The notes under the pieces were generated by a model. The model was given only the letters and a program-made list of their open reading frames with translations. It was not told where the DNA came from and searched no databases. From a virus (Duplodnaviria > Heunggongvirae > Uroviricota > Caudoviricetes): a DNA stretch of 16,874 nt. The stretch lies in the IMG/VR virus record IMGVR_UViG_2740892443_000003, positions 1 to 16,874 of that record, one strand, 5' to 3'. The position numbers and the translations under genes are program-made. Of this stretch, positions 1,078 through 15,565 are shown one piece after another. Positions within the stretch are counted from its first letter, which is position 1. Every line of letters begins with the position of its first letter.

Positions 1078-1182
1078 ATGCACGGTAATTCTGAAATGCA
1101 AAAAATCAACCAAACCAGCGCAATGCCTGAAAAAACTGACGTTCACTGGAGTGGTCGGTTTAGCGTTGCACCAATGCTCGAT
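1078..1182 (+). repeat. attL-side copy of the dusA 5' segment (chromosomal version)
   Basis: Direct repeat of 15461-15565; about 20 mismatches over 105 nt by manual codon-by-codon alignment. Confidence 0.8.
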
Positions 1183-1200
1183 AGGATGTACCGTTGTTGA
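1078..1200 (+). pseudogene. dusA: Displaced original 5' end of dusA (35 native codons, 5 island-derived codons, then TGA)
   Basis: Translates MHGNSEMQKINQTSAMPEKTDVHWSGRFSVAPMLD-RMYRC*. The first 35 codons are about 81% identical in DNA to the start of the intact dusA at 15461. Similarity ends right after the shared ATGCTCGA at 1174-1181. Confidence 0.85.
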
Positions 1201-1222
1201 AAAACAAGTAGTTATACACTCT

Positions 1223-1243
1223 GTGGGAGCCTATTGGGAACCC
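1223..1243 (+). promoter_or_regulatory. Two direct NTGGGARCC repeats just inside the left junction; candidate integrase or RDF arm-type sites
   Basis: GTGGGAGCC (1223-1231) and TTGGGAACC (1234-1242), 11 bp apart. The same 8-mer TGGGAACC recurs near the right junction at 15408-15415. Confidence 0.35.
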
Positions 1244-1325
1244 GGCGTTTTCATTTCAAGGTGTAATCCATACGCGGCTTAAGAATGAGATATAATGCGA
1301 CTTTTAGTGTTCCGCTTGAGAGGCC

Positions 1326-1862
1326 ATGATGCTTACCCTGGACGAGATAGGTCAATCAGTACGTAACAATATCCAGTTGATTATTGATCATGTCGGCTTA
1401 CCTCTTGCTGTTGGTCCGCTCAGTGATGATGATTACAAGATTCTGTGTGGTGGCTATGGTGAGCTTGAATGGGACTATGCGTTAAGCACCTATGGCAACT
1501 CCAGAGAAAAGTATGAGTTCTGCATAAAACTTGTTCAGCAAGGTCGGGTTCAGGGAATACCATCAGGAGCAGCAATTTGTGTTTATGGGGTTGAAGAAAA
1601 CATCTTTCGTATCCATATGATCGAAAGGTTTTCTAGAGAAGATGAATCTCACCCATTGAAAGGGCGCATGGTTTTACTCACTCTTATGAGTGCTTTTATA
1701 TTTTGTAAAGCTGTTGAATGTAAAGTTGTCCACATTGTAGAGCCAGTACCAGAACTGGTGCAGTATTACGAGTCTTTTGGTTTCCGCATGGAACAGTGCG
1801 GTTATGTGATGTCTGCAGTCATTGATGAGCTGCAGGATATCTTTCTTAAATTTGCTCAGTAG
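1326..1862 (+). CDS. Putative GNAT-fold N-acetyltransferase-like protein, 178 aa (island cargo)
   Basis: ORF with tandem ATGs at 1326 and 1329 and a GAGAGG Shine-Dalgarno. C-terminal region KGRMVLLTLMSAFIFCKAVECKVVHIVEPVPELVQYYESFGFRM resembles the GNAT acetyl-CoA-binding core. Functional call is tentative. Confidence 0.55.
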   Translation: MMLTLDEIGQSVRNNIQLIIDHVGLPLAVGPLSDDDYKILCGGYGELEWDYALSTYGNSREKYEFCIKLVQQGRVQGIPSGAAICVYGVEENIFRIHMIERFSREDESHPLKGRMVLLTLMSAFIFCKAVECKVVHIVEPVPELVQYYESFGFRMEQCGYVMSAVIDELQDIFLKFAQ

Positions 1863-1967
1863 GTATAGACGAGAAGGGTCTACAAATTGTAGGATACCCG
1901 TCCAGATTACCTTAAAGGTACATCTATGGCAGTCGTTTTGTGCTTAAACTACTAAGAAACGATGTCA

Positions 1968-1988
1968 CCAATCGACATGATCGATTGG
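1968..1988 (+). promoter_or_regulatory. Perfect 8-5-8 palindrome CCAATCGA-catga-TCGATTGG upstream of the small ORF; candidate operator
   Basis: Exact inverted repeat read directly from the sequence, 70 bp upstream of the 2059 start codon. Confidence 0.3.
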
Positions 1989-2058
1989 CATAAGTTAGCT
2001 AAACAAGCTAGCTTTAAAGAGAGGGTTAGAGACGCCTTTACTGTCTCGGGAGTTTTCT

Positions 2059-2232
2059 ATGAAAGATCAAAAAGCAACCAAGCCACAGGTTAAGTTCGAC
2101 ACAATGAAAGCATTCGCAGGTATGGGTGCTGCTGTTGAAGTTCTGATGAAGGCTGCTCCTAATGCGTTCACTCACGCTACTGTCTCTGGTAAAGAGCAGC
2201 AGGGTAAGCTTCGTCGTCGCAAAGCAGCATGA
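2059..2232 (+). CDS. Small basic hypothetical protein, 57 aa (below the ORF-track size cutoff)
   Basis: ATG at 2059 preceded by GGGAG, TGA at 2230-2232, strong terminator 20 bp downstream. Translation MKDQKATKPQVKFDTMKAFAGMGAAVEVLMKAAPNAFTHATVSGKEQQGKLRRRKAA. Confidence 0.45.
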   Translation: MKDQKATKPQVKFDTMKAFAGMGAAVEVLMKAAPNAFTHATVSGKEQQGKLRRRKAA

Positions 2233-2250
2233 TCATAGCTGGTGCTTTTT

Positions 2251-2278
2251 GAAAACCCGCCTTTAGGCGGGTTTTTTC
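2251..2278. terminator. Bidirectional rho-independent terminator shared by the small ORF (+) and the leftward operon (-)
   Basis: AAACCCGCC-ttta-GGCGGGTTT hairpin with an A-tract on one side and a T-tract on the other. Confidence 0.8.
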
Positions 2279-2279
2279 T

Positions 2280-2561
2280 TTAGTGATGTTCTTTGCCCTT
2301 CTGTTTGCCTGTTCTGACCTGTTCCCACTCGATACGTCCTTCTTCTCGTCTTTTGTCTATGTATTCCGCAAGATCCTGAATATTGATGCAACGTTTTGCT
2401 TTTTGTGATGTGCCGATGCGATATGTTGGAACGGGCAACTTACAAGCGTTTGCTTTTGCTTCTGCCGTGGCTGGACTCATGCCAAAGTACTTTTGGCTAA
2501 CTGCTGAGAGTTCAATGTTAGGGGTATTGAATTCAGCCATCAGTAAAAACAAGGTGTTCAT
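2280..2561 (-). CDS. PrtN-family (pyocin-activator / AlpA-like) DNA-binding protein, 93 aa
   Basis: MNTLFLLMAEF...KLPVPTYRIGTSQKAKRCINIQDLAEYID matches the PrtN family pattern as I recall it. Start chosen at the ATG at 2559-2561 with GGAG six nt upstream; the ORF-track start at 2588 is a GTG. Confidence 0.65.
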   Translation of the reverse strand: MNTLFLLMAEFNTPNIELSAVSQKYFGMSPATAEAKANACKLPVPTYRIGTSQKAKRCINIQDLAEYIDKRREEGRIEWEQVRTGKQKGKEHH

Positions 2562-2597
2562 AATTTTCTCCATCAAAACCGGCTGCACCCGGGAAAA

Positions 2598-3170
2598 TCA
2601 TAATTCTGTGCTGGTGGCAGGAATTAATTTCTGCCAGATAGCGGAAACATATTTTGCCTGATGACGAGCATCAGCCAGGGCGTTGTGCCGTTCGCCATCG
2701 AAAGGCATGTCCATTTTGGGGTCGAATCCGATGAAACGCCCAAGCGTAACGATCGTGCGTACATCGTGGTCATTCCAGCACGCCCATGGGCAGATTTGTC
2801 CTGCTCGCTCATAAGCCCCACGTAAAATTACGTTGTCGAAGGTGGCTCCGTTACCCCAGACTTTTAAATATTTCGTATTGTCTGCGTGCCGGTTAATGAA
2901 ATGGTTCAGTTCAGAGAGTGCATCGCTGATCGACAAAGTATCATCAATACAGATTGCAGCTCGTGCTTCAGGGCTTTGTTTCAACCACCACAGGATGGTA
3001 TCGCCGTCAGGTGTGGCCCCTTGCTCCATAGCACTTTCCAGGCTGACAACCGTATAGAATTCTTGTCCGATGTCTCCGGTTTCTGGGGTGAAGAACACCG
3101 CGCCAATGGAAACGATTGGTGCATCCTTATTTTTCCCCATCGTCTCAAGGTCGATCATTAAGTTGTTCAT
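2598..3170 (-). CDS. DnaQ-like DEDDh 3'-5' exonuclease, 190 aa
   Basis: N-terminal MIDLETMG (Exo I D-x-E motif) and C-terminal H...D motif. ATG at 3168-3170 with GGAGGT Shine-Dalgarno, overlapping the upstream stop (TGATG). Confidence 0.8.
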   Translation of the reverse strand: MNNLMIDLETMGKNKDAPIVSIGAVFFTPETGDIGQEFYTVVSLESAMEQGATPDGDTILWWLKQSPEARAAICIDDTLSISDALSELNHFINRHADNTKYLKVWGNGATFDNVILRGAYERAGQICPWACWNDHDVRTIVTLGRFIGFDPKMDMPFDGERHNALADARHQAKYVSAIWQKLIPATSTEL

Positions 3171-3919
3171 CACTTCACCTCCTGCGGCGGTTCCGGTAGC
3201 GGCATCCAGTGAGTTGCTTGCTCAATACCATTACCCGGCTTAATCGTTGCATCTCCGCGCCGAAAGGTGCTTCCGGTATAGCGTGCGGAGCATATTAGCG
3301 GTTCAACCAGAGAGCTATCGAAATTCACCGAAATAAGCACGTTCTGGCCCTTTTCAGGCATTCGATCACTACAGCTTATCCAACTATCCGGAGTTCCTGG
3401 AGAGTTGCCACCGGGAATATTTTCCGGAATATTTTGTTGTGCGTTTTGTGGTTGTTCGGATTTACCCTGAAGCATGGCGGCTCGGCAGGCATCACTGCGA
3501 ACTTCAATCCCCGCCTTATCCAACGCAAGCAACAAACCTCGTTCGCTGTCTCCGCAGTCGTCCAGTGTGTCATTGAGCACCGAAAGCGCTTTTTCGAAAT
3601 CTTCATCGTGAATAGCGAGCGGCACAGCCACCGCTGGCTGCGGTAACTGTGGTGCTGTGTAGAGTGGCGTAACACTGATTTCGTATTCGTTAATATCTTC
3701 ATCGCTGATAGATGCATCAAAGCTTAAAAAGCCAGGTCTACCGAGACCACGGGCCTGTGCGTCCTGGATGATGTACGCCACAGCCTCAGCTTCGAGCGAT
3801 GCCAGTGCGATACGCGCCAGCTCTTTGACAACATCACAGTTTTTATTTCCTTCGCAATCATCCATCAAAAGCCAATCGTCATTGATTATTTCTTTAATCT
3901 TATCCCGTGAAAGTTCCAT
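3170..3919 (-). CDS. Phage protein with C-terminal DUF551-like domain, 249 aa
   Basis: C-terminal WISCSDRMPEKGQNVLIS...HWMPLPEPP resembles DUF551. GGGGGTG Shine-Dalgarno before the ATG at 3917-3919. Confidence 0.65.
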   Translation of the reverse strand: MELSRDKIKEIINDDWLLMDDCEGNKNCDVVKELARIALASLEAEAVAYIIQDAQARGLGRPGFLSFDASISDEDINEYEISVTPLYTAPQLPQPAVAVPLAIHDEDFEKALSVLNDTLDDCGDSERGLLLALDKAGIEVRSDACRAAMLQGKSEQPQNAQQNIPENIPGGNSPGTPDSWISCSDRMPEKGQNVLISVNFDSSLVEPLICSARYTGSTFRRGDATIKPGNGIEQATHWMPLPEPPQEVK

Positions 3920-4119
3920 TATTTCACCCCCTTAGCTTTTCGTTCTGCTTCACTAAAATCCCAATCAACACGATGCGATATTTCAATGGCCGCCCTAACT
4001 GAATGTTCAATCATGATGTCGAGCCTTTGAAGTGTCATAGCCATATTTGGATTTCGAGCCAATATTTCTGCGCGAAGAATTTGCCAGTCATTGCATGTTT
4101 CAAGTAATGAATTAGCCAT
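3919..4119 (-). CDS. Small hypothetical protein, 66 aa
   Basis: Internal ATG (4117-4119) of the 85-aa track ORF, chosen to avoid a 65-nt overlap with the upstream gene. Weak Shine-Dalgarno. Confidence 0.35.
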   Translation of the reverse strand: MANSLLETCNDWQILRAEILARNPNMAMTLQRLDIMIEHSVRAAIEISHRVDWDFSEAERKAKGVK

Positions 4120-4621
4120 TATCTTTACCCCGCGTGCCATATGCTGATAAGCACTCTTCAAATCCAGCCTGATCATCCGTTTGACCTAAACTGAAGCCAT
4201 GCTGAAGACCATGACGAAATGCGCTATCCTGTAATTTGTCTGCAGATTCTAGTTTCAACTCCAGTTCAGCAATCCGCTCCTCATACCGAGCGCCAACGGA
4301 AACGGCTTTATGGAAGGCTTCGCACCATTTGGACGATTGCGCCTGCATCTTCTCCAGCTCATCCAGCAGCGCCAAGACGGTAGCCGGATTGGCTGCGGCG
4401 ATGAATTCAGCATTGGCCTGCTGTTCCATTTGGAAATCTTCATCGAAACCGCTTTCTGGATGCGCTCCTTCAATTCTGCAAATAGGAATATATCCAGCAA
4501 CTTCACGATGAATTAGTGCATCATCACCATCAAATCGGCCATCTCCATATTCGAGCGACCACTCGCCACTCGTTGCTTTTTCTGCCGCCTCACGCAGTGC
4601 CTGATAGTTAATTTTGGTCAT
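4112..4621 (-). CDS. Phage early protein, possibly Ead/Ea22-like, 169 aa
   Basis: Intact ORF in operon register. The motif ANAEFIAAANPATVLALLDELE and a coiled-coil-like C-terminus recall Ea22-like prophage proteins (memory only). Confidence 0.55.
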   Translation of the reverse strand: MTKINYQALREAAEKATSGEWSLEYGDGRFDGDDALIHREVAGYIPICRIEGAHPESGFDEDFQMEQQANAEFIAAANPATVLALLDELEKMQAQSSKWCEAFHKAVSVGARYEERIAELELKLESADKLQDSAFRHGLQHGFSLGQTDDQAGFEECLSAYGTRGKDNG

Positions 4622-4622
4622 A

Positions 4623-4922
4623 TCACATCACCCTGAAGCCGTTGCATTTACGTAAAAAATCGCAGATATAGCCCTTCATTTTTTCGTGCCAATCTCGATC
4701 ATTCCCATTGCACCAACCATCAGGTGGAGTCCAGTTTTCTATCAGAGCAGCCATTTTCTTTGCTTTCGCCGGAGTAGCTGTTGCGGTATCGCAGTAATGA
4801 CGAGTGTCAACCAACGTATCCATACCATCGATATCAAGTACGCAAAACCATGTGTGATTCGGCATTTCAACAGATGGTATTTGTTGCCCACGTCGACGTT
4901 TATCAATAAGACATACAGTCAC
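4623..4922 (-). CDS. Hypothetical protein, up to 99 aa; start uncertain (GTG overlapping the upstream stop)
   Basis: ORF in operon register. Size is close to YfdT of CPS-53 (101 aa) but no sequence recognised. Confidence 0.4.
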   Translation of the reverse strand: MTVCLIDKRRRGQQIPSVEMPNHTWFCVLDIDGMDTLVDTRHYCDTATATPAKAKKMAALIENWTPPDGWCNGNDRDWHEKMKGYICDFLRKCNGFRVM

Positions 4923-5497
4923 TGGTTGCCTCCTTTGCGAAGCTGGTCGGCGATATCTTCGAGAACGCCATCAGAGAATGAGCGGTCAAAATCGCCTTCC
5001 GGCGCATTAGCCATAAAATCAGTAGAGGTAAGAATCATCCTGGCAATATCCGCGGCGTTCTTCGCAGTATCATCAATAAAACCAGCTCCCCAGGCAGCCA
5101 TCATTCTGTTCGCCACAAAGTAAGCGCCCTCCTTGCGTGCTTCAGTCTTCACTTCAGCCAGAAAGGCGTCGGTGGCTGGGGTTTCGCTGTGGTGCAGGGC
5201 ATCGTTGATAATCATTGCAGCAACTCCGGCCTGCCCTGCATCCGTGACCGACACATGCTCAAGAGTTACAGCCATTGCATGTTTAAGCCCCGCATTCTCA
5301 GAAGCCAGCTCCGCGCACTTGTCCTCAATGTTATCAATCGTGATTCCAGCAGAACGACACTCCCGCAACGCCGTTTCTAGTTTTGATTCAAGTTCACCGA
5401 ACTTACGGACAAGATATTCAGCGTTTGTTTCATTCACTTTCAGATCTCGTGGTACACATTTCCCGCGAAGAAACCCTTCCATTTCGAAAACATTCAT
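4919..5497 (-). CDS. Hypothetical phage early protein, 192 aa
   Basis: ATG at 5495-5497 overlaps the upstream stop (ATGA coupling). No family recognised. Confidence 0.55.
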   Translation of the reverse strand: MNVFEMEGFLRGKCVPRDLKVNETNAEYLVRKFGELESKLETALRECRSAGITIDNIEDKCAELASENAGLKHAMAVTLEHVSVTDAGQAGVAAMIINDALHHSETPATDAFLAEVKTEARKEGAYFVANRMMAAWGAGFIDDTAKNAADIARMILTSTDFMANAPEGDFDRSFSDGVLEDIADQLRKGGNQ

Positions 5498-6030
5498 GCG
5501 CATTTGCGTAACTCCGATAACTCGTTAAAACGTTCCATAAACATCCCGTAGGCATGGCCCGGTGCCAGTGGAATCACGTTGAACATCTCTGTTGCCGGGA
5601 TGCCTTCCAGTACAGGCCAGAAAGAGCCATCATCAAGCCCGAGATCGCGGCGTTCGGTTGCCAGCATGATGAGATCGGCATATTTCACAGGCGTGCTCAT
5701 AACCGGGGGTAACCCGTATTTCTCACGGATTACGGCGTCTATTTTTTCTTCCATTCGTTTATAGTCAGGAAGAAGGCGTTTCAGTGGTGCGGGGATGTCC
5801 TGGCAATACGCTTCTGTTGCATCATGCATTAACGCTTCAAAAGCAAATTCCTGCGGTACCAGCTGGCTGCAAAGCACCGCATGTTGGGCGACGCTGTAGA
5901 AGTGTGAAAGATGGCCGGCAAAGCGACATATATTTGAAAGGGAAACCGCGATATCGTTAATATCGATGCTGTCTTTATTTATCCTGTCATAATAAAAATG
6001 CTTCCCGGAAAAAGTTTTAATAAATGACAT
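5494..6030 (-). CDS. yfdR: HD-domain phosphohydrolase, YfdR-like, 178 aa
   Basis: H...HD motifs (CRFAGH, SVAQHAV, EALMHDATEAY). ATG at 6028-6030 with GGAGAA Shine-Dalgarno gives 178 aa, the size of CPS-53 YfdR. Sits downstream of YfdP- and YfdQ-sized genes. Confidence 0.75.
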   Translation of the reverse strand: MSFIKTFSGKHFYYDRINKDSIDINDIAVSLSNICRFAGHLSHFYSVAQHAVLCSQLVPQEFAFEALMHDATEAYCQDIPAPLKRLLPDYKRMEEKIDAVIREKYGLPPVMSTPVKYADLIMLATERRDLGLDDGSFWPVLEGIPATEMFNVIPLAPGHAYGMFMERFNELSELRKCA

Positions 6031-6086
6031 TTTGTTCTCCACGTTATATGCGCTGCACCGCGCTGAATTTTGGTTAAAGAAAACCC

Positions 6087-6146
6087 TCGCCTTCAGGCGA
6101 TTATTGAGTCAATTACGTTTCCATAAATGCCCCCGCAGGGGCATTT
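6087..6146 (-). other. Two GC-rich hairpins in the yfdQ-yfdR spacer; possible attenuator or RNA-stability element
   Basis: TCGCC-ttca-GGCGA (6087-6100), followed on the minus strand by GGGTTTTCTTT; and the perfect AAATGCCCC-cgca-GGGGCATTT (6125-6146). Confidence 0.35.
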
Positions 6147-6158
6147 GCGGTAATGAAA

Positions 6159-6983
6159 TCAGGCGGTGAAAGTCCCAATAAAGGTTTCTACTTTGCTGTC
6201 CTTGAATTTCTCAACAAGCAGATCACGAAATTCGTTAGCCATATCTTCCTGCACCGCTTCCAGCTGAATAATGCGTAGAACCAGTACCGGACGATCGCCA
6301 GTGATAATGCTGAGGCGTAATTTAAACGGACGTTCTTTCAGACCTTCAAACGGAACGCATTTAAACTCAAATGCCACTGGCATAATGTCTTTGGTCTTCG
6401 CTTCGACAGACTCCATCAGGGAGCGTTTGCCGCTGAAGTCATTATCTTCAAAATCAGCAGTCTGGTTTGCTTCAATTGTGATTTTACGGACTGCCGCAGC
6501 CGCTTTGGTTGCCTGAATGGTGTCACCATTAGCATCAAAGCCCACAAGGTAGTCGGCCCAGTCTTCAATCCATTCTGCCAGTGACTTCTGGGAGTTACGC
6601 TCGCCGTTAACAGACAACAGGGCAGAGAACGGTGCTGTCTTTTTCAGTTTGAGAGTGGCGGTGTTATCTGCGTGACCTGGTTCATCAATAGTACCCAGGT
6701 TAAGCACACTGACTGCTCGCATATTATCGGCATCGATAAAGCAGCGGGTGCCTTCATCTGCAAGATCTTTAGAATAACGGGTAAAGTCATCGATGCTGGC
6801 AGTGGAAAGCGCACCACGGAAACGGAAGCGATTTAAATTAAATTTTTCCAGATCATGAATGCGGAAATTCTCAGGCAATGCCACAGCATCGGCACCAATC
6901 TTACTGATAATTTCATTAACACCCTGAGCAGAAATAAGGGCATGGATTTGATTAATTGCGGTTGCGTCTAAGTTCTGAGACAT
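6159..6983 (-). CDS. yfdQ: YfdQ-like (DUF2303-type) prophage protein, 274 aa
   Basis: Exact size of CPS-53 YfdQ and the same position in a yfdP-yfdQ-yfdR order. GTGAGGA Shine-Dalgarno. Sequence identity itself not checked. Confidence 0.7.
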
Positions 6984-7048
6984 AATAAGTCCTCACTATA
7001 TAAAGATATTCAGTGATGAGATAAATAATCGGTTAATTAAGAACGATA

Positions 7049-7411
7049 TTAATGACCTGCTGCGCGGAGTTTTCCGTCAGGTTCACCGGCAAGAGTCAGT
7101 AATTGTCCCTGGTCTTCCTGCAGAATAGTCAGGCGACCACCGCGATTGACATACATCGGCGTTTCGGTGGTGTCTTCTTCGGAAATTTTCCCGCGGTTAG
7201 TCGGGCGAACATATGAGAGTTTGTGTTTGATTTTCACACGGTTCTCATCAAATGGTTCGATTTCCAGGTTGAGTGAGACCTTACCTTTGGTTTTCGTGTT
7301 CATCACACCTGAAGCGACTTCACTGAGAACTGCGCCGATTTTGGTTTCAAATACGCCGCCGTCCAACTCCCCGATAAATGCCTGCACATCAGTACTGCGT
7401 TCGCTAGCCAT
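7049..7411 (-). CDS. yfdP: YfdP-like prophage protein, 120 aa
   Basis: Start placed at the internal ATG (7409-7411), which has a GAGGAG Shine-Dalgarno 7 nt upstream. The 182-aa track ORF extends upstream through a structured noncoding region. Confidence 0.6.
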   Translation of the reverse strand: MASERSTDVQAFIGELDGGVFETKIGAVLSEVASGVMNTKTKGKVSLNLEIEPFDENRVKIKHKLSYVRPTNRGKISEEDTTETPMYVNRGGRLTILQEDQGQLLTLAGEPDGKLRAAGH

Positions 7412-7460
7412 TTTGCTGCTCCTCATCATATCGACCCTGCAAGGTCGGTTGGTTTCTCCA

Positions 7461-7547
7461 CAAAACAGAGAAGAACACCTGCGGTGGCAGCCGCCCGGAT
7501 GGATTGGGTTATGAGCCCGTCGTCCGGTGATGCTCTTCTCTGTTTTG
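7461..7547 (-). repeat. Long inverted repeat in the early-operon leader: 14-bp perfect arms, 59-bp spacer
   Basis: CAAAACAGAGAAGA (7461-7474) is the exact reverse complement of TCTTCTCTGTTTTG (7534-7547). Lies 50-135 bp upstream of the yfdP start. Confidence 0.5.
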
Positions 7548-7594
7548 TAAAAAGAGCGGTACCAGCCGGAAGCAAGTGTACAAACTGGTACCGC
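7548..7594 (-). terminator. Candidate intrinsic terminator or OL-like operator in the leftward leader
   Basis: GCGGTACCAG (7556-7565) and CTGGTACCGC (7585-7594) are exact inverted repeats; on the minus strand they are followed by TCTTTTTA. The arms contain the GGTACC core seen in the cI/cro operators. Confidence 0.4.
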
Positions 7595-8097: not shown

Positions 8098-8772
8098 TTA
8101 GGCCTTTATTTTGTATCTTCTTGGTTTTCCTGAGAAAATTACTGTACCAATTATAGAGCAATTACCGTTGATCTTAATGTAAGGTTCAGGCCAGTTTGGG
8201 TTTAATGCTTTGAGGTAACGCTGTGTTCCATCTTCTATCAACCGCTTAAAGGTGGTTTCGCCTGTATCGTGCATCAATGCAATAACGTCGTCACCGTGGC
8301 AGGCAGGGACTTCAGGATCTACAAAAATCATGTCTCCCGGGCGGTACTCATCAATCATTGAATCACCAATCACCCGCAAGATATAAGTCATTTCGCCACA
8401 GGGTACAGGGCAGGGATAAGTTTCTGCTGTGCTCAAATCAACCTCAGAATAGCCAACTTCTTTCCATGCTCCGGCCTGTACCCATGATATGACAGGGACT
8501 AACGTTATTTGTTTGTTAGTGATTGAAACGTCAGGTTTTTTTGTGATGTTCGTTGTCTGGTGTTCTTGATCAAGCCATCCGACAGGCAGGTCGAAACATT
8601 TTTCGATGTGCCGTGCCATGCTGTCACCGATATTTTTAGTTGCACCATCTCCCATAAACCTGCTGGTCTGGGTTGGCTCGCGATCAATCATGGTGGCAAA
8701 GGAAGAATTCCCGCCAACACCATCTCTCAGTTTTCTGGCGTTAGACCGCCGGATGTCATGGACTGTTTTCAT
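8098..8772 (-). CDS. Lambda-cI/LexA-type autocleavable repressor (S24 peptidase C-terminal domain), 224 aa
   Basis: VQAG cleavage-site motif, GDSM serine nucleophile, TFKRL lysine. C-terminus aligns by eye to lambda cI ([22 protein letters not shown] versus TFKRLIEDGTQRYLKALNPNWP). N-terminal HTH region. Confidence 0.9.
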   Translation of the reverse strand: MKTVHDIRRSNARKLRDGVGGNSSFATMIDREPTQTSRFMGDGATKNIGDSMARHIEKCFDLPVGWLDQEHQTTNITKKPDVSITNKQITLVPVISWVQAGAWKEVGYSEVDLSTAETYPCPVPCGEMTYILRVIGDSMIDEYRPGDMIFVDPEVPACHGDDVIALMHDTGETTFKRLIEDGTQRYLKALNPNWPEPYIKINGNCSIIGTVIFSGKPRRYKIKA

Positions 8773-8862: not shown

Positions 8863-9231
8863 ATGAAAGCGTATTGGGACTCTTTAACCAAAGAACAGCA
8901 GGGTGAGTTGGCCGGAAAAGTTGGCTCAACACCAGGCTACTTACGGCTGGTTTTCAATGGTTATAAAAAAGCCAGTTTTGTGCTGGCTAAAAAACTTGAG
9001 CAATGCACGTCAGGTGCAATTACGAAATCTGACTTAAGACCGGATATCAACACGCGCCTTGAACAGTCTGCACGGATCATTCAGCGCACGCCGGATGAGG
9101 TTTTACCCGCGCTGGTGCTGGCGGCGACCTGGTTTGATAACGCGGCGCGTGACGCGGACATTATCCGGCGTAATGCCATTACGCATCCCGGCTTTGTGCC
9201 GGTGATCCCTCTGAAGGTGCCAGTGCAATGA
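8863..9231 (+). CDS. Cro/YdaS-like HTH regulator with a C-terminal extension, 122 aa
   Basis: GGAGG Shine-Dalgarno then ATG at 8863. GSTPGYLRLVFNG...SGAITKSDLRPDI fits the YdaS/Cro HTH pattern. The last ~45 codons are GC-rich like the structural genes. The stop overlaps the next start (ATGA at 9228-9231). Confidence 0.6.
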   Translation: MKAYWDSLTKEQQGELAGKVGSTPGYLRLVFNGYKKASFVLAKKLEQCTSGAITKSDLRPDINTRLEQSARIIQRTPDEVLPALVLAATWFDNAARDADIIRRNAITHPGFVPVIPLKVPVQ

Positions 9232-10307
9232 ACGACAATGTCACGCTACGGGTAAATGGCCGGGAGTGGAATGGCTGGACATCGGTGCGCATCGGTGCCG
9301 GTATTGAACGGCTGGCGCGGGATTTCAGTGTGGAGATCACTCGCCAATGGCCGGGAGATGAGGGTATCACCACGCTTCAGCCGCGCATTAAAAACGGTTC
9401 AAAAGTGGAAGTGCTAATTGGTGATGAGCTGGTGATCACCGGCTGGGTGGAGGCGACTCCCGTTCGTTACGATGCCCGTTCGGTCAGCACCGGTATTGCC
9501 GGACGTAGTCTGACGGCTGACCTGATTGACTGTGCAGCCGAACCGACACAGTTTAACGGACGCTCGCTGGTGCAGATTGCGCAGGCGCTTGCTGCACCTT
9601 TCGGCATTGAGGTGGTGAACAGCGGTGCGCCGTCGGGTGTTATTCCTGATGTTCAGCCTGATCACGGTGAAACGGTGATTGAGGTAATCAACAAAATACT
9701 CGGTCAGCAGCAGGCGCTGGCTTACGACGACCCGCACGGCAGGCTGGTGATTGGCGGTATTGGCTCAACGCGGGCACATACCGCGCTGGTACTTGGGGAA
9801 AACATCCTTTCCTGCGATACGGAGAAGAGTATCCGGGAGCGGTTTTCTGTTTACCAGGTGGCGGGGCAGCGTGCCGGAAACGACGATGATTTCGGTGAGG
9901 CCACCACAACTGCGCTGCGGGCCCGCACAGAGGACGCATTTATTGCCCGTTACCGTCCGATGTATATCAGGCAGACAGGGCAGGCCACGGGGGCAGGCTG
10001 TATTGCGCGTGCTGACTTTGAAGCCCGACAACGGGCGGCGCGGACGGATGAAACCACTTATGTGGTGCAGGGCTGGCGACAGGGTAACGGTACGCTGTGG
10101 CAGCCCAACCAGCGGGTGATTGTCTTCGATCCGGTCTGTGGTTTCGACAATACCGAACTGCTTGTTTCGGAAGTCACGTTTACTCAGGACCAGAACGGCA
10201 CCCTGACGGAAATCCGTGTCGGCCCGCCTGATGCTTATCTGCCTGAACCCGAAGATCCCGGCGCGCGGAAAAAGAAAAAAGCCAGAGTACAGGAGGACCC
10301 GTTCTGA
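9228..10307 (+). CDS. Baseplate hub protein (Mu gp44 / P2 gpD-like), 359 aa
   Basis: Size and position immediately upstream of a gpV-like gene in conserved Mu/P2 baseplate order; family membership not confirmed by motif. High GC. Translationally coupled on both sides. Confidence 0.6.
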   Translation: MNDNVTLRVNGREWNGWTSVRIGAGIERLARDFSVEITRQWPGDEGITTLQPRIKNGSKVEVLIGDELVITGWVEATPVRYDARSVSTGIAGRSLTADLIDCAAEPTQFNGRSLVQIAQALAAPFGIEVVNSGAPSGVIPDVQPDHGETVIEVINKILGQQQALAYDDPHGRLVIGGIGSTRAHTALVLGENILSCDTEKSIRERFSVYQVAGQRAGNDDDFGEATTTALRARTEDAFIARYRPMYIRQTGQATGAGCIARADFEARQRAARTDETTYVVQGWRQGNGTLWQPNQRVIVFDPVCGFDNTELLVSEVTFTQDQNGTLTEIRVGPPDAYLPEPEDPGARKKKKARVQEDPF

Positions 10308-10855
10308 TGAGGGCGATTGAAGCCATGCAGCGACAACTCCTCGGCCTGATTGGGCGGGCCGTGGTGAAAAGCATCAGTGCCGCCACGAAATGTCAGACCG
10401 TGGATGTGTCCCTGATTGCCGGTGAACCCAAAGCCGGGGTTGAACATCTTGAACCCTACGGTTTTACCGCAAGGGCAAACAGCGGTGCGGAAGCGGTGGT
10501 GTTGTTTCCGGATGGCGACCGTTCTCATGCGGTGGTTGTTACGGTGTCGGACCGGCGCTACCGCCTGAAAGGGCTGCAGACGGGTGAGGTGGCTGTCTAT
10601 GACGATCAGGGGCAGTCCGTGACGCTGACCCGGGAGGGGATCGTGGTGGACGGTGCAGGTAAAACGATCACGTTTCGCAATTCACCTAAAGCACGTTTTG
10701 AAATGGACCTGGAAGTGACAGGACAGGTGAAAGACCTGTGCGACTCCAGCGGCACTACCATGTCAGCGATGCGGCTTGCCTATAACGGGCATCGTCACAG
10801 AGAGAACGGTCAGGGCAGTAACACCGACAAACCGGATAAAGCGATGGAGGCATGA
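10307..10855 (+). CDS. Baseplate spike / assembly protein V-like (Mu gp45), 182 aa
   Basis: gpV-like features including a C-terminal YNGHRH motif comparable to LHTHKH in P2 gpV. AGGAGG Shine-Dalgarno. TGATG overlap with the upstream stop. Confidence 0.7.
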   Translation: MRAIEAMQRQLLGLIGRAVVKSISAATKCQTVDVSLIAGEPKAGVEHLEPYGFTARANSGAEAVVLFPDGDRSHAVVVTVSDRRYRLKGLQTGEVAVYDDQGQSVTLTREGIVVDGAGKTITFRNSPKARFEMDLEVTGQVKDLCDSSGTTMSAMRLAYNGHRHRENGQGSNTDKPDKAMEA

Positions 10856-11280
10856 TGGAACTGTGGCTGACGGTGAACGGTAAACGCACCTGCGCCAGCG
10901 CACCGCTGGATCCGCTGACCCGCGCCGTGGTGATTTCCCTGTTTACCTGGCGGCGGGCGGAGCCTGATGACAACGCCGACGTCCCGATGGGATGGTGGGG
11001 GGATACCTGGCCTGCGGTACAGAATGACCGTTACGGCTCCCGACTGTGGCTGCTTCAGCGCAGCAAACTGACCAATCAGCTGGTGCAGACAGTAAGGGGG
11101 TATATCCGCGAATGCCTGCAATGGATGATTGATGACGGTGTGGTGTCCCGTATTGATCTGGATATCCGCCGCACCGGGATTAATGAGCTGGGTAACAGTA
11201 TCACCCTCTGGCGTCGTGACGGACCGGTAATGATTTCTTTTGATGATCTGTGGAGTGCGATAACGCATGGCGGACAGTGA
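10852..11280 (+). CDS. GP46/gpW-type baseplate wedge protein (T4 gp25-like), 142 aa
   Basis: Size and position in conserved order. GGAGG Shine-Dalgarno. Overlaps neighbours on both sides. Confidence 0.65.
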   Translation: MMELWLTVNGKRTCASAPLDPLTRAVVISLFTWRRAEPDDNADVPMGWWGDTWPAVQNDRYGSRLWLLQRSKLTNQLVQTVRGYIRECLQWMIDDGVVSRIDLDIRRTGINELGNSITLWRRDGPVMISFDDLWSAITHGGQ

Positions 11281-12325
11281 ATTTCAGCGCCCGACGCTGG
11301 CAGAAAATATCAGTATGCTCCGTAACGATTTATTCGCCAGGCTGGACGTCAGCGACACGCTCCGGCGCATGGATGAAGACGTGCGGGCAAAGGTGTATGC
11401 GGCGGCGCTGCATACGGTTTACGGTTACATCGATTATCTGGCAATGAACATGCTGCCTGATCTGTGCGATGAGTCCTGGCTGGCGCGACATGCTGCGATG
11501 AAACGGTGTCCGCGCAAGGGGGCCACGGCTGCCAGCGGGTATATGCGCTGGGAAGGTGTCAGCGATGGCCTGAAGGTGACCGCCGGGAGTGTTATTCAGC
11601 GCGATGACCTGGTTCAGTACACGGCAACTGCCGATGCAACCAGCACTGGTGGTGTCCTGCGTGTGCCGATCACTTGCTCAACTACAGGCGCGGTCGGTAA
11701 CGCTGACGACGGTACGGCATTAATCCTGGTCACACCGGTGAATGGTCTGCCGTCTTCCGGTGTGGCTGACACCCTGACAGGCGGATTTGATACTGAAGAG
11801 CTGGAAACGTGGCGCGCCCGCGTCATTGAGCGGTATTACTGGACGCCTCAGGGCGGGGCTGACGGGGACTATGTCGTCTGGGCTAAAGAAGTGCCCGGCA
11901 TTACCCGCGCATGGACATACCGACACTGGATGGGAACGGGGACTGTCGGTGTGATGATTGCCAGCAGTGACCTGATTAATCCCATTCCGGAAGAGTCAAC
12001 GGAAACGGCGGCAAGACAACATATCGAGCCACTGGCCCCGGTGGCAGGCTCTGATTTGTATGTATTCAGGCCGGTGGCGCATAAAGTGGATTTTCATATC
12101 CGCGTGACGCCGGACACACCGGAAATACGGGCTGCCATCACCGCCGAGTTGCGTTCGTTCCTGCTGCGTGATGGTTATCCGCAGGGAGAACTGAAGGTGT
12201 CACGTATCAGTGAAGCGATTTCCGGTGCGAACGGGGAATACAGCCATCAGTTGCTTGCCCCGGCGGACAATATCTCCATTGCAAAAAATGAGCTGGCGGT
12301 TCTGGGGACGATTTCATGGACGTGA
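11267..12325 (+). CDS. Baseplate J-like protein (Mu gp47 / P2 gpJ), 352 aa
   Basis: Typical size and position. Overlaps neighbours by 14 and 10 nt. Confidence 0.75.
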
Positions 12326-12900
12326 CAAACGATGATTATATCCGTCTGTTGTCGGCACTGTTGCCGCCCGGTCCGGCGTGGTCAGTCAGCGATCCGGCGA
12401 TTGCCGGTGCGGCACCGTCATTAACCCGCGTTCATCAGCGTGCGGATGCCCTGATGCGGGAGCTGGATCCGCGCACCACCACTGAACTGATAAACCGCTG
12501 GGAGCGTCTGTGCGGTCTGCCGGATGAATGTATTCCCGCAGGGACACAGACCCTTCGCCAGCGTCAGCAACGGCTGGATGCGAAGGTTAATCTGGCGGGC
12601 GGCATCAATGAGGATTTTTATCTTGCACAGCTTGCTGCCCTGGGCAGACCAGACGCCACTATCACGCGATACGATAAAAGCACGTTCACCTGCTCATCGG
12701 CCTGTACTGACGCGGTGAATGCGCCGGAATGGCGGTATTACTGGCAGGTCAACATGCCAGCCGCCACCAACACCACCTGGATGACATGTGGCGATCCCTG
12801 TGATTCCGCACTGCGTATCTGGGGCGACACCGTTGTCGAGTGTGTGCTTAACAAACTCTGCCCGTCGCATACCTACGTAATTTTTAAATATCCGGAGTAA
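12316..12900 (+). CDS. Mu gp48 / P2 gpI-like tail protein (YmfQ-like, DUF2313-type), 194 aa
   Basis: Same length as e14 YmfQ (from memory). Sits between the J-like gene and the tail fibre. Confidence 0.7.
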
Positions 12901-12903
12901 TCC

Positions 12904-13551
12904 ATGCATCGTATAGACACGAAAACCGCGCAGAAGGATAAGTTCGGCGCGGGTAAGAACGGTTTTACCCGTGGTAATCCCCAGACTGGTACGCCTGCCA
13001 CCGATCTGGATGATGACTACTTTGACATGTTGCAGGAGGAGCTTTGCAGCGTTGTGGAGGCATCCGGTGCCAGCCTGGAGAAGGGGCGGTATGACCAGTT
13101 GCTTACCGCACTTCGCGCACTGCTGTTAAGCCGCAATAATCCGTTTGGTGATATCAAATCGGACGGCACGGTACCAACGGCTCTCAAAAACCTTGGTTTA
13201 GGAGAAGCGGCGAAAAGGGATGTGGGCACAGGAGATAATCAGATACCGGATATGGGAGCATTCGCTTCTGGTTCGGGATGGTTCAGGCTACCAGGTGGAT
13301 ATATTGTTCAGTTTGGCACTTTTTCAGGAAACACGACCCGCTTTATCAGTGGACACTTCCCTATACCATTCCCTAATCAGCCGATGGTTTCAGTCAGTGT
13401 TATGTCTGATGCCGTTCAGTCAGACCCGTCGAATCCTGCCCCGCAGGTTTTGTCTGTAAATTTTGAACATATCAGTAATTCAGCGTGGCGTGTGGCAACC
13501 AGTGATATCTCACAGCAATACAGATTCAGTTATATTTCGATAGGACGGTAG
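12904..13551 (+). CDS. Short tail fibre protein, 215 aa (conserved N-terminal domain plus variable C-terminal part)
   Basis: [47 protein letters not shown] is the conserved phage tail-fibre N-terminus. GGAG Shine-Dalgarno. Confidence 0.75.
13181..13206. other. Gin/Pin/Hin-type (Din family) 26-bp crossover-site-like sequence inside the tail-fibre gene
   Basis: CTCTCAAAAACC-TT-GGTTTAGGAGAA is an imperfect palindrome with the AAACC-NN-GGTTT core. It matches hixL (TTCTTGAAAACCAAGGTTTTTGATAA, from memory) at 9 of 12 positions in each half. Confidence 0.5.
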
Positions 13552-13553
13552 AA

Positions 13554-13994
13554 ATGCAGAAATATATTTTCAGTGCCGATAAAAATGCGTTTTTCCCTGT
13601 GGAGCTTAAAATCGCTTATCAGGAATCCGGCGAATGGCCCGATGATGGAATCGAAATTGACGACACTGTTGCCGCCGAATTTATGAAGGAAGCACCAGAA
13701 GGAAAATACAGAGGTGTCATCGACGGAATGCCAGCATGGATTGATATTCCACCGCCAACTCATGAGGAACAAATTGCCGCAGCCGAACTGGAAAAGCAGC
13801 AATTGATTAATCAGGTCAACGAATACATAAACAGTAAGCAATGGCCTGGTAAAGCGGCGATTGGTCGCCTGAAAGGTGAGAAACTGGCGCAATATAATTT
13901 GTGGCTGGATTATCTGGACGCACTGGAGCTGGTCGATACTTCCGGTGCGCCAGATATTGAATGGCCTACGCCTCCGGCAGTTCAGGCCAGATGA
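13554..13994 (+). CDS. Tail fibre assembly chaperone (Tfa, Mu U / lambda Tfa-like), 146 aa
   Basis: MQKYIFSADKNAFFP... with a C-terminal ...PDIEWPTPP motif typical of Tfa proteins. Confidence 0.8.
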   Translation: MQKYIFSADKNAFFPVELKIAYQESGEWPDDGIEIDDTVAAEFMKEAPEGKYRGVIDGMPAWIDIPPPTHEEQIAAAELEKQQLINQVNEYINSKQWPGKAAIGRLKGEKLAQYNLWLDYLDALELVDTSGAPDIEWPTPPAVQAR

Positions 13995-15372
13995 CATCCG
14001 GCGCGGTGCTGGTATCTGTTGCCGCCACCGCGTCAATGTAATCCAGCACAGCGTTAAGCCGGGTTGTTTCTGCCTGCGTCAGTTTACGTCCGGCCTGCAA
14101 TTTCAGTTGAATCAGACTGATGGAAGCCATAGCAGCATCAATCAGCGACTGGCGCTGTGCTTCTGCCGCGTCTACTGCGGCGCTATGTTGTGCCTCGGTA
14201 TCCGTCACCCATTTCTCACCATCCCATTTATCGTATGGCGTTAACGGGGCGATAGTGGTTGTATTATCAGGGTAATCACCCGGAGCTGTGATTTCTTTTG
14301 ATTCCCCTGTTTCGGTGCTAAAAACGATTTCACCGCGATGGTCTGGCATATATTCCCATGATTTTAAATCTGCTGAACGGCAGATAACCTGGGCTACTTC
14401 CTCAATACTAAAACCAGCCTCAAATAAGCGACTTGCCCCTTCTCTACGCAAATCATGGTATCGCAGATCCTTAATACCTAATTTGCTTCTTACCCTCTGA
14501 AATCCCGCAGTAACAGAAGTGCTGTTATATGGAAAAATGAATTCCGATTTTTGGGGCTGTCGTTGGACGATATCCCAGGCTTCCCCAAGCAAGGCTACTT
14601 TCATGTGGTTGCCTTCCTTTTTGCGTGGATCTTTCCTGTCTCTTACGAGTATAGATTTTTGTTCCTGGTCGAGATCTTCCCATCGTAACCGGCATACTTC
14701 TCCGATTCGCATACAGGACCACACAGAAAATTTGAGGATATCAACGAACGGAATTTTTGAGCATTTATGAGTAGATCGTTGTTGAAGGCCTTCAATGAGC
14801 ATGTCCAGTTCATCAGATGCTGGTCTACGATTACGACGGTTTGATTTACCAATTAAACCAAGTTTAAGTAGATATGGACGAGCGGCTTTTGCTGGGTTTG
14901 ATGTGTAATTAATTCCATATACAGGTTTGGCAGCATCCAGAACACTGCCAAGATAACTAACATCGTGGCTAACTGTAGCTGGACCTGCACCAGCGTTGTT
15001 TCTTAGCCTGCAATGTTCAATTACGTCATTTTCTGTCAGTTCAGATAGTTTGATCGCGGAGATGTCACTATCCATAAGCAGTTCCAGCACATATCTTTTA
15101 GTACGGCCTGCTTTACCTCCGGCATTTGGGTCATTTAAATATTTGTGTAGTAAGTCACGGACTGTAAGTCCGTCAACTGCATTTGATGATGGAATGCCAT
15201 ATAGATCTAATTCCATCACTTTCTGTGTGCCCCATGTTTTGGCATGAGCATGTTTAGGGAATGTTTTGCTTTCCCTGTAAGTGATAACACCTTTTTCTTT
15301 GATAATCACATTACAGCGATAGCGTGGTGTGCCATCGGATTTTAGTCGTTTCTCTATGTTATAGTACGCCAT
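13966..15372 (-). CDS. int: dusA-associated tyrosine integrase with an in-frame C-terminal Tfa-like extension, 468-aa ORF
   Basis: Catalytic motifs by eye: R in IGEVCRLRWEDLD, H-x-x-R in YHDLRREG, Tyr in SWEY. After ...YMPDHRGE the frame continues about 110 codons into Tfa-like sequence (...KWDGEKWVTDTEAQ...APDVIWPELPEA). Its 3' end overlaps tfa convergently by 29 bp. Confidence 0.8.
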   Translation of the reverse strand: MAYYNIEKRLKSDGTPRYRCNVIIKEKGVITYRESKTFPKHAHAKTWGTQKVMELDLYGIPSSNAVDGLTVRDLLHKYLNDPNAGGKAGRTKRYVLELLMDSDISAIKLSELTENDVIEHCRLRNNAGAGPATVSHDVSYLGSVLDAAKPVYGINYTSNPAKAARPYLLKLGLIGKSNRRNRRPASDELDMLIEGLQQRSTHKCSKIPFVDILKFSVWSCMRIGEVCRLRWEDLDQEQKSILVRDRKDPRKKEGNHMKVALLGEAWDIVQRQPQKSEFIFPYNSTSVTAGFQRVRSKLGIKDLRYHDLRREGASRLFEAGFSIEEVAQVICRSADLKSWEYMPDHRGEIVFSTETGESKEITAPGDYPDNTTTIAPLTPYDKWDGEKWVTDTEAQHSAAVDAAEAQRQSLIDAAMASISLIQLKLQAGRKLTQAETTRLNAVLDYIDAVAATDTSTAPDVIWPELPEA

Positions 15373-15392
15373 TACACGACCTCGTTATTTCG

Positions 15393-15427
15393 GGTTCCCA
15401 TAAAACGTGGGAACCTGTGCGGGAACC
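15393..15427. promoter_or_regulatory. Palindrome GGTTCCCA-N7-TGGGAACC plus a third GGGAACC copy between int and dusA; candidate operator or arm-type site
   Basis: Exact 8-bp inverted arms at 15393-15400 and 15408-15415, with GGGAACC again at 15421-15427. Lies 20-55 bp upstream of the int start and 35-70 bp upstream of dusA. Confidence 0.4.
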
Positions 15428-15460
15428 TAACGCGAGAAAAATAGCCTGAAATGTTCAAAA

Positions 15461-15565
15461 ATGCACGATAATCATGAAACACAAAAAATTAATCAAACCA
15501 GCGTGATGCCTGAAAAAACTGGTGTTTACTGGAATTCTCGGTTTAGCATTGCTCCTATGCTCGAC
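15461..15565 (+). repeat. attR-side copy of the dusA 5' segment (island-supplied replacement)
   Basis: About 81% identical to 1078-1182; continuous with the rest of dusA. Confidence 0.8.

Follow-up and report, generated by a model that had tools for sequence, protein, structure and literature searches.

Organization of the locus

The window, the whole stretch of 16,874 nucleotides analysed here, is the E. coli yjbM–dusA–pspG locus. Inserted into dusA, about 100 bp from its start, is an island whose int/attP and early-left module is of the mEp460 type, whose repressor is LexA-like, and whose baseplate and tail-fibre module is Mu-like. The principal features of the island are listed below.

1182–15556, no strand assigned: the island, a defective prophage remnant of 14,375 bp
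2280–2588, minus strand: PrtN-family gene for an RdfN-type recombination directionality factor (excisionase; PF11112, 4e-23; phrog_1300 'excisionase', 8e-40)
8098–8772, minus strand: LexA/S24-type phage repressor, apparently intact (PF00717, 1.5e-26; LexA family protein in relatives)
9228–13994, plus strand: surviving Mu-like baseplate, tail-fibre and tail-fibre-assembly genes (Pfam matches)
13966–15372, minus strand: chimeric Int-Tfa ORF, 468 aa, with its breakpoint at 14385/14386

The Pfam families matched within 9228–13994 are GpP-like, Gp45, GP46, Baseplate_J, Gp48, Gp53-like_C and Caudo_TAP. No xis is present next to int. PHROGs matches for 1326–1862 and 2059–2232 are of 'unknown function' only, the small cargo ORFs matched none of the defence systems in PADLOC, and an Rfam scan of the entire window gave no match.

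Two copies of the dusA start

The 5′ end of dusA is found at both edges of the island, where the following elements are located.

1078–1181, plus strand: bacterial side of attL, the orphaned native dusA 5′ end (codons 1–35), with the native upstream region kept
1078–1200, plus strand: 40-codon dead-end ORF comprising native dusA codons 1–35, RMYRC and TGA (translation)
1174–1181, plus strand: attL copy of the core ATGCTCGA, the sole exact block common to both junctions
15461–15556, plus strand: dusA′, the island-borne replacement dusA 5′ end, codons 1–32
15461–16498, plus strand: reconstituted chimeric dusA ORF, 345 aa (PF01207, 7.8e-105)
15557–15564, plus strand: attR copy of the core ATGCTCGA, the same exact block

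An earlier note on this DNA had reported that the first 35 codons of dusA occur twice, with about 81% identity and about 20 differences. Gapless comparison of 1078–1182 with 15461–15565 gives 86/105 identical positions (81.9%) and 19 differences, confirming by formal alignment that the two copies are related; the next best 105-nt stretch in the entire window, on both strands, matches the repeat at 46/105 positions (mean 26.3, s.d. 4.6). The similarity extends from 4–5 nt 5′ of the ATG to the end of ATGCTCGA. This block is the 8-bp shared core that the note had placed in dusA, being the sole exact block at both junctions, with the crossover inside it. The surrounding repeats of about 21 bp, TGCACCAATGCTCGATAGGAT in attL and TGCTCCTATGCTCGACTGGAC in attR, are identical at 16/21 positions by our own count, including the 8-bp exact core.

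Comparison with the dusA of K-12 MG1655 bears out the assignment of the left copy as the K-12-type start and of the right copy as island-derived. The left copy is identical to MG1655 at 104/104 positions through position 1181 and at 68/70 positions of the upstream flank, whereas the right copy matches K-12 at 87/105 positions and its upstream flank at merely 18/70; the native start is therefore the left-copy sequence and not that of 15461–15556. Downstream of 15565, K-12 MG1655 and the window are identical (76/76). In related genomes, RefSeq labels the 1078–1181 piece as a partial tRNA-dihydrouridine synthase.

The left copy continues through MHGNSEMQKINQTSAMPEKTDVHWSGRFSVAPMLD into RMYRC and ends in a TGA (1198–1200) five codons past the core, as the note had read it. 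The right copy is joined to the functional gene, also as proposed: it supplies an in-frame start of phage DNA, from which the ORF runs on as a 345-aa DusA. This chimeric protein carries 9 substitutions among its first 35 residues and scores 560 bits against the NCBIfam DusA equivalog (cut-off 269), a model that starts at residue 19–27. DusA is intact, and the chimeric protein is probably functional.

A predicted attP was assembled from the island side of attR, the core and the island side of attL. It is colinear with a circular 37.7-kb record, without gaps (544/560 identical), and the 603-bp sequence has 97.8% identity over 100% coverage with phage mEp460 (JQ182728). The replacement start dusA′ is part of attP both in mEp460 and in circular record L004. 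Elements of the dusA-associated integrase type excise as a circle, with attB and attP regenerated, and the attP of relatives occurs in circular records or phage genomes. In the mechanism that we propose, the phage attP carries its own diverged dusA codons 1–32, ending in the core, so that integration yields two products: an attL with an orphaned native start, whose reading frame stops after 40 codons, and an attR at which the rest of dusA continues, in frame, from a start and upstream region of the phage. Strand exchange would take place inside the 8-bp identity block. The overlap is probably the 7-bp TGCTCGA, on either side of which attP would have inverted core-type sites, TCCTAT and ATAGGA. 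The insertion site in the window is the same as the C. rodentium attB given in PMC6328086.

Truncation of the integrase and decay of the element

In the Int-Tfa chimera, a dusA-associated tyrosine integrase (residues 1–329) is followed by the C-terminal part of a tail-fibre assembly protein (residues 330–468). The integrase part agrees with the Int of strain CT02, a protein of 365 aa, at 327/329 positions, after which the match stops, and the match to Tfa has 134/155 identical positions; the Pfam integrase match ends at profile position 152 of 172 and is followed by Caudo_TAP. The missing Int tail, TGHRSLNVLWQVYTEL..., aligns to GH...Y of XerA. The window Int keeps the first Arg region and H306-x-x-R309 and ends at residue 329, without G-H332 and Y342, so that the RHRH tetrad and nucleophilic Tyr of a tyrosine recombinase are incomplete; all of these catalytic residues are present in full-length relatives of 99% identity. 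On its sequence, the window Int is a truncated derivative of a member of the dusA-associated integrase (DAI) family rather than a functional member. The same chimeric protein is encoded on 8 independent contigs (exact-protein look-up), and neither the Int-Tfa junction nor the overall arrangement of the window is found in any of the complete E. coli genomes searched. A model dedicated to this integrase is absent from NCBIfam, which returns only weak Xer-type matches below cut-off; the depositor's note on the mEp460 Int, 'INT_Rci cd00796', would fit the position of the DAI family beside the Rci shufflon recombinases in phylogenies.

A further deletion is recorded in the middle of the island.

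9041–9048, no strand assigned: deletion junction A, with 8-bp microhomology CGGATATC

Junction A joins the 3′ end of cro-like ymfT to the 3′ end of a DNA-circularisation gene, with GC content rising from 0.43 to 0.58. Genes for replication, lysis, head and tail have been lost at this point, approximately 25 kb as estimated against non-identical relatives, and 1,808 bp are missing at int relative to strain E19025, itself a non-identical relative whose 41-kb full-length prophage serves as the reference for the 14.4-kb island. The 1.8-kb deletion removed the invertase gene pin, dinI and the last 36 integrase codons, including His332 and the nucleophile Tyr342, and fused the remaining int in frame to a gene for tail-fibre assembly; the replication, lysis, head and tail genes were lost through the second deletion, of about 25 kb. 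Owing to these two deletions, the element is now considered fixed. Its status as a 14.4-kb remnant with two deletions was overlooked in the earlier note.

Two other readings of the island can be set against this one. The direct repeats flanking the island would fit a target-site or tandem duplication, and the right copy might alternatively be native and the left one foreign. However, 19 of 105 positions differ between the copies, K-12 agrees with the left copy and its upstream flank and not with the right copy, and the right copy is carried inside the attP of a phage and of a circular molecule; the comparison with K-12 and these attP sequences refute both versions, whose probability we regard as negligible. 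That the element might instead be a functional, excisable lysogen or mobile island is suggested by its intact att sites, arm repeats and RdfN-type gene, and by the occurrence of full-length relatives as circular molecules and phages. Yet Int is without His332 and Tyr342, the element has lost its genes for replication, lysis and head and most of those for the tail, and the island measures 14.4 kb against 41 kb in strain E19025, making this very unlikely; the treatment of the element in the earlier note as a curable, circularising lysogen is not supported, given a truncated, Tfa-fused int ORF lacking both catalytic residues and the loss of about 25 kb. We therefore consider it highly probable that the island is a 14.4-kb temperate-phage remnant that entered about 100 bp inside dusA by conservative site-specific recombination, through a dusA-associated tyrosine integrase, and is now fixed.

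As the chimera is without the last catalytic His and the Tyr nucleophile, self-excision is not expected, and the remnant probably cannot excise by its own means. Both att sites, the five repeats and the RdfN-type excisionase gene are still intact, and the remnant should therefore remain excisable by a full-length integrase provided in trans, while excision without Int in trans is predicted to fail. A second intact integrase of the same family elsewhere in the genome could still mobilise the remnant. The locus also illustrates how such elements decay: microhomology deletions strip the lytic genes and the integrase active site, whereas the repressor, the excisionase gene, the two att sites and the dusA′ that restores the gene are spared. 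The annotation that suits the locus best is that of a defective prophage, fixed in dusA, together with a chimeric DusA that is probably functional; neither an inducible lysogen nor a disrupted dusA should be recorded.

Repeats in the attachment-site arms

Short repeats are located on both sides of the core, together with a conserved block upstream of dusA′.

1225–1242, plus strand: int-distal arm, two direct 7-mers, candidate arm-type sites (GGGAGCC 1225–1231, GGGAACC 1236–1242)
15393–15427, no strand assigned: int-proximal arm 7-mers, candidate arm-type sites and possibly also an operator
15438–15443, plus strand: AAAATA block, candidate −10 element (of either strand), invariant in 16/16 aligned relatives

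The palindrome noted earlier at 15393–15427 exists: the inverted repeat at 15393–15415 is real (GGTTCCC 15393–15399, inverted; GGGAACC 15409–15415, direct), and a third, direct copy of GGGAACC lies at 15421–15427. The int-distal 7-mers are 43 and 54 bp from the core, within the segment 43–61 bp beyond it, and the window contains the exact 8-mer TGGGAACC only three times, always in the att arms.

An exact set of one inverted and two direct copies, arranged in this way, is present in 13/33 intergenic regions compared with 0.2% of shuffles, in a test that accepts exact copies in the fixed arrangement. A first statistic, based on at least three copies of a 7-mer with one mismatch, was too permissive, being matched by about half of the shuffles, and was rejected. 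Across the intergenic regions the fixed arrangement is built from four different motifs at near-constant positions. Sites in the window and mEp460 and those in phage YeP1 fall at attP positions 24/26, 40/41, 52/53, 239 and 250 with differing motifs, the YeP1 far-arm copies at 239 and 250 having the motif GGGGTGC. In the window and its relatives there is thus a repeated motif, apart from the core and on both arms, that co-varies with the integrase lineage. Most likely, the five repeats (three int-proximal, two in the far arm) are arm-type sites bound by Int and laid out 3+2, as in lambda, and a five-copy, lineage-specific 7-mer fits such sites better than a dusA control element. Owing to their location between the divergent int and dusA′, the int-proximal repeats may also be autoregulatory.

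The earlier note was right that dusA expression relies on island sequence, as any dusA promoter must now be in island DNA. Its assignment of the palindrome to dusA expression is not supported by the comparative data, which point to 3+2 lineage-specific repeats on both attP arms, or by the promoter scan: no sigma-70 consensus was found in 15250–15600. Around native dusA (700–1400) the sigma-70 scan gave nothing convincing. Our impression is that the upstream spacer of the island may be homologous to the native dusA promoter. The AAAATA block is 17 nt upstream of the dusA′ ATG. K-12, the one native sequence compared, has GATAAAATA at a distance from the ATG similar to that in the island spacer.

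The repeats at 15393–15427 might instead be mainly an operator or promoter element of dusA′, or be bound by RdfN rather than Int. They lie within the 88 bp that separate int from the divergent dusA′, the third copy would overlap the −35 position expected for a −10 near 15437–15447, and RdfN, like Int, is reported to be common to dusA-specific elements. A dusA′ element, however, would not explain why the same lineage-specific motif is present twice on the other attP arm, with no link to dusA′ transcription, or why far-arm recurrence is seen in at least four lineages, and directionality-factor sites are usually confined to one arm, as in lambda attP. We consider these alternatives rather unlikely and favour Int arm-type sites; the Int-site and operator roles are compatible with each other. 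In a more speculative reading, the int-proximal trio would lie in a control region common to int and dusA′, and in the lineage with this remnant the catalytically dead Int-Tfa protein, which would retain its arm-binding and core-binding domains, could persist as a DNA-binding protein that permanently occupies the arm sites and sets dusA′ expression. Although we hold this to be quite improbable, it would, if true, make a domesticated integrase fragment the regulator of a host tRNA-modification gene.

We found no description of arm sites for dusA-associated integrases in the searchable literature, and PMC4482086 contains no occurrence of 'arm-type' and does not mention arm-type repeats. The arm-site layout is a small descriptive addition to the known picture, in which the conserved 3+2 lineage-specific repeats offer a testable attP map for a widespread integrase family.

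Comparison with known systems

The likeness to the dusA-specific integrase elements of Farrugia (2015), which the earlier note had pointed out, is confirmed (PMC4482086). DAI elements have a tyrosine integrase divergent from dusA, insert at the 5′ end of the gene at a semi-conserved 21-bp repeat, and give the gene a replacement 5′ end in which the beta-1 strand (RFS[VI]APMLD) is included; Table S1 of that study lists lysogens of E. coli (PMC4482086). In the window, int adjoins the dusA 5′ end and is divergent from it (int start 15372, minus strand; dusA′ start 15461, plus strand), semi-conserved direct repeats of about 21 bp flank the island at the conserved dusA position, the in-frame replacement start with its beta-1 strand comes from the island, and a PrtN-family RdfN (ORF 2280–2588, minus strand) takes the place of an int-adjacent xis. 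The window copy differs in being a deletion remnant whose integrase is without two of five catalytic residues. Among Int relatives from other genera, int is divergent to a dusA with an island-type start in 34/49. The int–dusA′ junction is present in 742/5,426 complete E. coli genomes (~14%), with Stx phages among the carriers, and most complete E. coli genomes match solely from the dusA start, at ~91% identity. The integration pattern and the replaced dusA start are thus already known behaviour of dusA-associated integrases.

The int–spacer–dusA′ module is 100% identical over 304 bp to that of Stx2 phage 1720a-02 (Phi-stx2dact), which integrates 100 bp into dusA with a seven-base core and an in-frame PhidusA′ (Balasubramanian et al. 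2019, PMC6328086). Unlike the window remnant, which is without pin, dinI and the int 3′ end, 1720a-02 and mEp460 are complete, inducible phages, and mEp460 has lambda-like side tail fibres in contrast to the Mu-like baseplate module of the window. For a related element, a new promoter and a new 35-residue dusA N-terminus were shown experimentally in E. coli K-12 (Rivard 2021, PMC8409611). The recombination module of Int plus a PrtN-family RdfN is shared with IMEVchUSA3 and other dusA-specific integrative elements, for which RdfN function was demonstrated (PMC8409611). IMEVchUSA3-type elements are plasmid-mobilised and AcaCD-controlled, whereas the window holds what is left of a phage, with a LexA-like repressor.

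Lambda attP has arm-type Int sites P1 and P2 on one side of the core and P′1–P′3 on the other. The predicted attP resembles it: two repeats in one arm face three in the other, the core has inverted core-type half-sites, and the overlap is probably 7 bp long. It differs in that one of the three int-proximal copies is inverted, and in that a coding segment separates the int-proximal sites from the core, which is 130 bp away. Restoration of a target gene is also known elsewhere: e14 and phage 21 insert at the 3′ end of icd. SXT inserts at the prfC 5′ end (cited in PMC8409611). As in the window, these elements bring a diverged copy of the displaced gene end, which restores the target ORF; they differ in their integrase families and target genes, and icd is replaced at its 3′ end.

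Two dusA starts bound the island

At the two ends of the island are diverged copies of the dusA start, which agree at 86 of 105 positions (19 differences, no gaps). The next best match among all other 105-nt stretches of the window, on both strands, reaches only 46/105 (mean 26.3, s.d. 4.6), bearing out the earlier proposal that two related starts are present. Similarity sets in 4-5 nt 5′ of the ATG and ends after the 8-bp core ATGCTCGA.

Boundaries of the island.
1078-1182: left copy of the dusA start (attL side)
1174-1181: core ATGCTCGA at attL, end of copy similarity
1182-15556: island, 14,375 bp
15461-15565: right copy of the dusA start (attR side)
15557-15564: core ATGCTCGA at attR, end of copy similarity

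The left frame (MHGNSEMQ…APMLD) continues through RMYRC into a TGA stop at 1198-1200, and the right frame (MHDNHETQ…APMLD) opens a DusA of 345 residues; the two differ at nine of their first 35 residues. The K-12 MG1655 sequence agrees with the left copy at every position up to 1181 (104/104) and with almost all of its upstream flank (68/70), whereas agreement with the right copy is limited to 87/105 positions and with the upstream flank of that copy to 18/70; 3′ of 15565, K-12 and the window are again identical (76/76). When the right junction was used as query, most complete E. coli genomes aligned only from the dusA start on, at ~91% identity, which is the native type. The left copy is thus native and the right island-derived, as the earlier note had it, and the references checked for an island-free dusA starting with the sequence of 15461-15556, K-12 and most complete E. 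coli genomes, carry the native start instead. The junction of int with the island-borne dusA 5′ end (dusA′) occurs in 742 of 5,426 complete E. coli genomes.

Integrases associated with dusA, and their semi-conserved 21-bp repeats, were defined by Farrugia et al. 2015 (PMC4482086), who also described the replacement by island DNA of the dusA 5′ end, including strand β1, and included E. coli lysogens in their Table S1. Phage 1720a-02 integrates 100 bp into dusA at a seven-base core, giving an in-frame PhidusA′ (Balasubramanian et al. 2019, PMC6328086), and in E. coli K-12 a dusA-specific element gives the gene another promoter and 35 different N-terminal residues, and expression is lower (Rivard et al. 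2021, PMC8409611); the latter study showed the excision factor to be RdfN, of the PrtN family. The central point of the earlier note, a dusA-integrase island with a replaced gene start, is therefore correct but already known, and its account of mobility and of the int-proximal palindrome was incomplete.

The predicted attachment site is found in related phages

When the core is placed between the island-side flank of attR and that of attL, the result is a predicted attP with the junction …CTCCTATGCTCGATAGGATG…; the attB junction reads …CACCAATGCTCGACTGGACG…. This attP is present in a circular 37.7-kb record of strain CX04 (colinear, gapless, 544/560, with no mismatch across the crossover) and in phage mEp460 (100% coverage, 97.8% identity), and Stx phage 1720a-02 shares a 304-bp stretch, running from int across dusA′ as far as the core, at 100% identity. 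From the dyad enclosing the attP core, TCCTAT-GCTCG-ATAGGA, and the attB half-sites ACCAAT and ACTGGA, we infer a 7-bp overlap, TGCTCGA, with flanking core-type sites. Between close relatives the most variable part of attP is dusA′ itself (15461-15556), with 7 differences in 96 nt relative to mEp460, as against 0/88 in the spacer, 4/300 in the far arm and 17/988 in int.

The integrase is truncated and the prophage decayed

Genes and junctions within the island.
1326-1862 and 2059-2232, +: conserved phage ORFs, function unassigned (phrog_4350 and phrog_2741)
2280-2588, −: PrtN/RdfN-type gene (PF11112; phrog_1300 'excisionase')
9041-9048: second deletion junction, 8-bp microhomology CGGATATC, ~25 kb missing
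13966-15372, −: 468-residue integrase chimera

Residues 1-329 of the 468-residue ORF are identical at 327 of 329 positions to the 365-residue integrase of strain CT02, and what follows, fused in frame at breakpoint 14385/14386, consists of the 139 C-terminal residues of Tfa, a tail-fibre assembly protein; in Pfam, the Phage_integrase match stops at profile position 152/172 and gives way to Caudo_TAP. As the missing integrase tail, TGHRSLNVLWQVYTEL…, aligns to the GH…Y of XerA structures, the chimera lacks His332, the fourth tetrad residue, and the nucleophile Tyr342. Relative to the 41-kb full-length prophage of strain APEC E19025, the fusion is a single 1,808-bp deletion that took the 5′ part of tfa, an alternative tail-fibre segment, pinE, dinI and 110 nt of int. 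At the second junction the end of cro-like ymfT is fused to the end of a DNA-circularisation gene, and GC content rises abruptly, from 0.43 to 0.58. The overall arrangement of the window and the Int-Tfa junction are each found in 0 of 5,426 complete E. coli genomes; an identical chimera is present in the same context on eight contigs from independent assemblies, and is therefore real and part of a circulating lineage.

This copy is a dead-end remnant: with two catalytic residues and ~25 kb of genes gone, the curable, excisable lysogen of the earlier note is not upheld. Judged from sequence, self-excision is not expected, and PCR should yield attP and attB products only with Int provided in trans.

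A deletion of like kind but independent origin, in strain CT02, links cro to a truncated baseplate gene and suggests that decay has taken this route repeatedly. The segment 12904-14385 is an orphan tail-fibre invertible segment, in which a gp53-like fibre tip and tfa (+) face the truncated tfa (−); the pin invertase that would flip it is deleted. A locus in Salmonella enterica subsp. diarizonae, with ~30 Int codons left beside dusA and an island-type spacer with degenerate repeats, is a more advanced state of decay; some dusA starts regarded as 'native' might likewise be relics of islands since lost.

Just inside attL, and in the same orientation as the orphaned native dusA promoter, are the ORFs at 1326-1862 and 2059-2232, which have no Pfam or PADLOC match. 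No terminator was detected in between, and the host promoter may drive their transcription, but only while the element is integrated; a perfect TATAAT lies at 1291-1296. A LexA/S24-type repressor (8098-8772, −) is apparently intact; immunity to superinfection and SOS-responsiveness may persist in the remnant.

Expression and function of the chimeric dusA

Owing to the lack of any co-directional gene in the 1.4 kb upstream of dusA′, its promoter must, by position, be island DNA; a simple scan for sigma-70 promoters gave no consensus match near dusA′. Invariant in an alignment of 16 spacers are ATGCAC at the dusA′ start and, 17 nt before the ATG, AAAATA (15438-15443), a candidate −10 element on either strand. 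Upstream of K-12 dusA (L002, the K-12 locus, 2640-2669), GATAAAATA is spaced from the ATG almost exactly as the island AAAATA is (window 15430-15460), and an ancestral promoter of dusA may be the source of the phage spacer.

An altered level of dusA expression is plausible by analogy with the element studied by Rivard et al. Loss of enzyme function is unlikely: the chimeric protein matches the DusA equivalog model, which starts only at residue 19-27, and the part of the replaced segment within the conserved fold is only RFS[VI]APMLD, with one conservative change. According to a recent paper, dusA inactivation can even be beneficial, so the selective value of restoring dusA is uncertain.

Repeats on both attP arms resemble arm-type sites

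The window contains three exact copies of the 8-mer TGGGAACC, at 1235, 15393 (−) and 15408, and one-mismatch copies at 1224 and 15420; all five lie within 170 bp of a core copy. Among 49 loci with Int relatives from other genera (44-99% identity), int is divergent from dusA in 34. The int-dusA′ spacer, of ~88 nt, keeps a single architecture, in which a 7-8-mer is present once inverted and twice in direct orientation, with 12 nt from the start of one direct copy to that of the next, and its motif depends on lineage (GGGAACC, GGGGTGCT, TGGTGTAC or GGTGTCCT). Exact copies in this arrangement are found in 13 of 33 spacers, as against 0.2% of shuffles. Several Int relatives lie beside genes other than dusA (loci L025-L034, L047, L048 and L054; Xenorhabdus, Serratia, Pseudomonas lundensis), including, on our reading of N-terminal sequences, DEAD-box helicase-like, pgl-like and upp-like genes, in keeping with the minority of non-dus targets that has been reported.

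Decisive evidence came from the opposite attP arm, as read in phage genomes. In attP coordinates, the sites of the window and mEp460 (motif GGGAACC) are at 24 (−), 40 and 52, then, beyond the core at 188, at 239 and 250; those of Yersinia phage YeP1 (motif GGGGTGC), whose Int is 68.6% identical, are at 26 (−), 41 and 53, with the core at 189, and again at 239 and 250. Phages of Morganella, Klebsiella and Shewanella likewise carry their own motif on both arms. The int-proximal repeats at 15393-15427, the palindrome on which the earlier note made dusA expression depend, are not a control element of dusA in particular, although the repeats may yet prove to be an operator for int or dusA′, or RdfN binding sites. 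Our literature search found no paper linking dusA integrases with arm-type sites, and the map of candidate sites, drawn by sequence comparison, is a modest new description. The five repeats look like arm-type recombinase sites, and their number on the two arms matches the 2+3 arm-site count of lambda attP.
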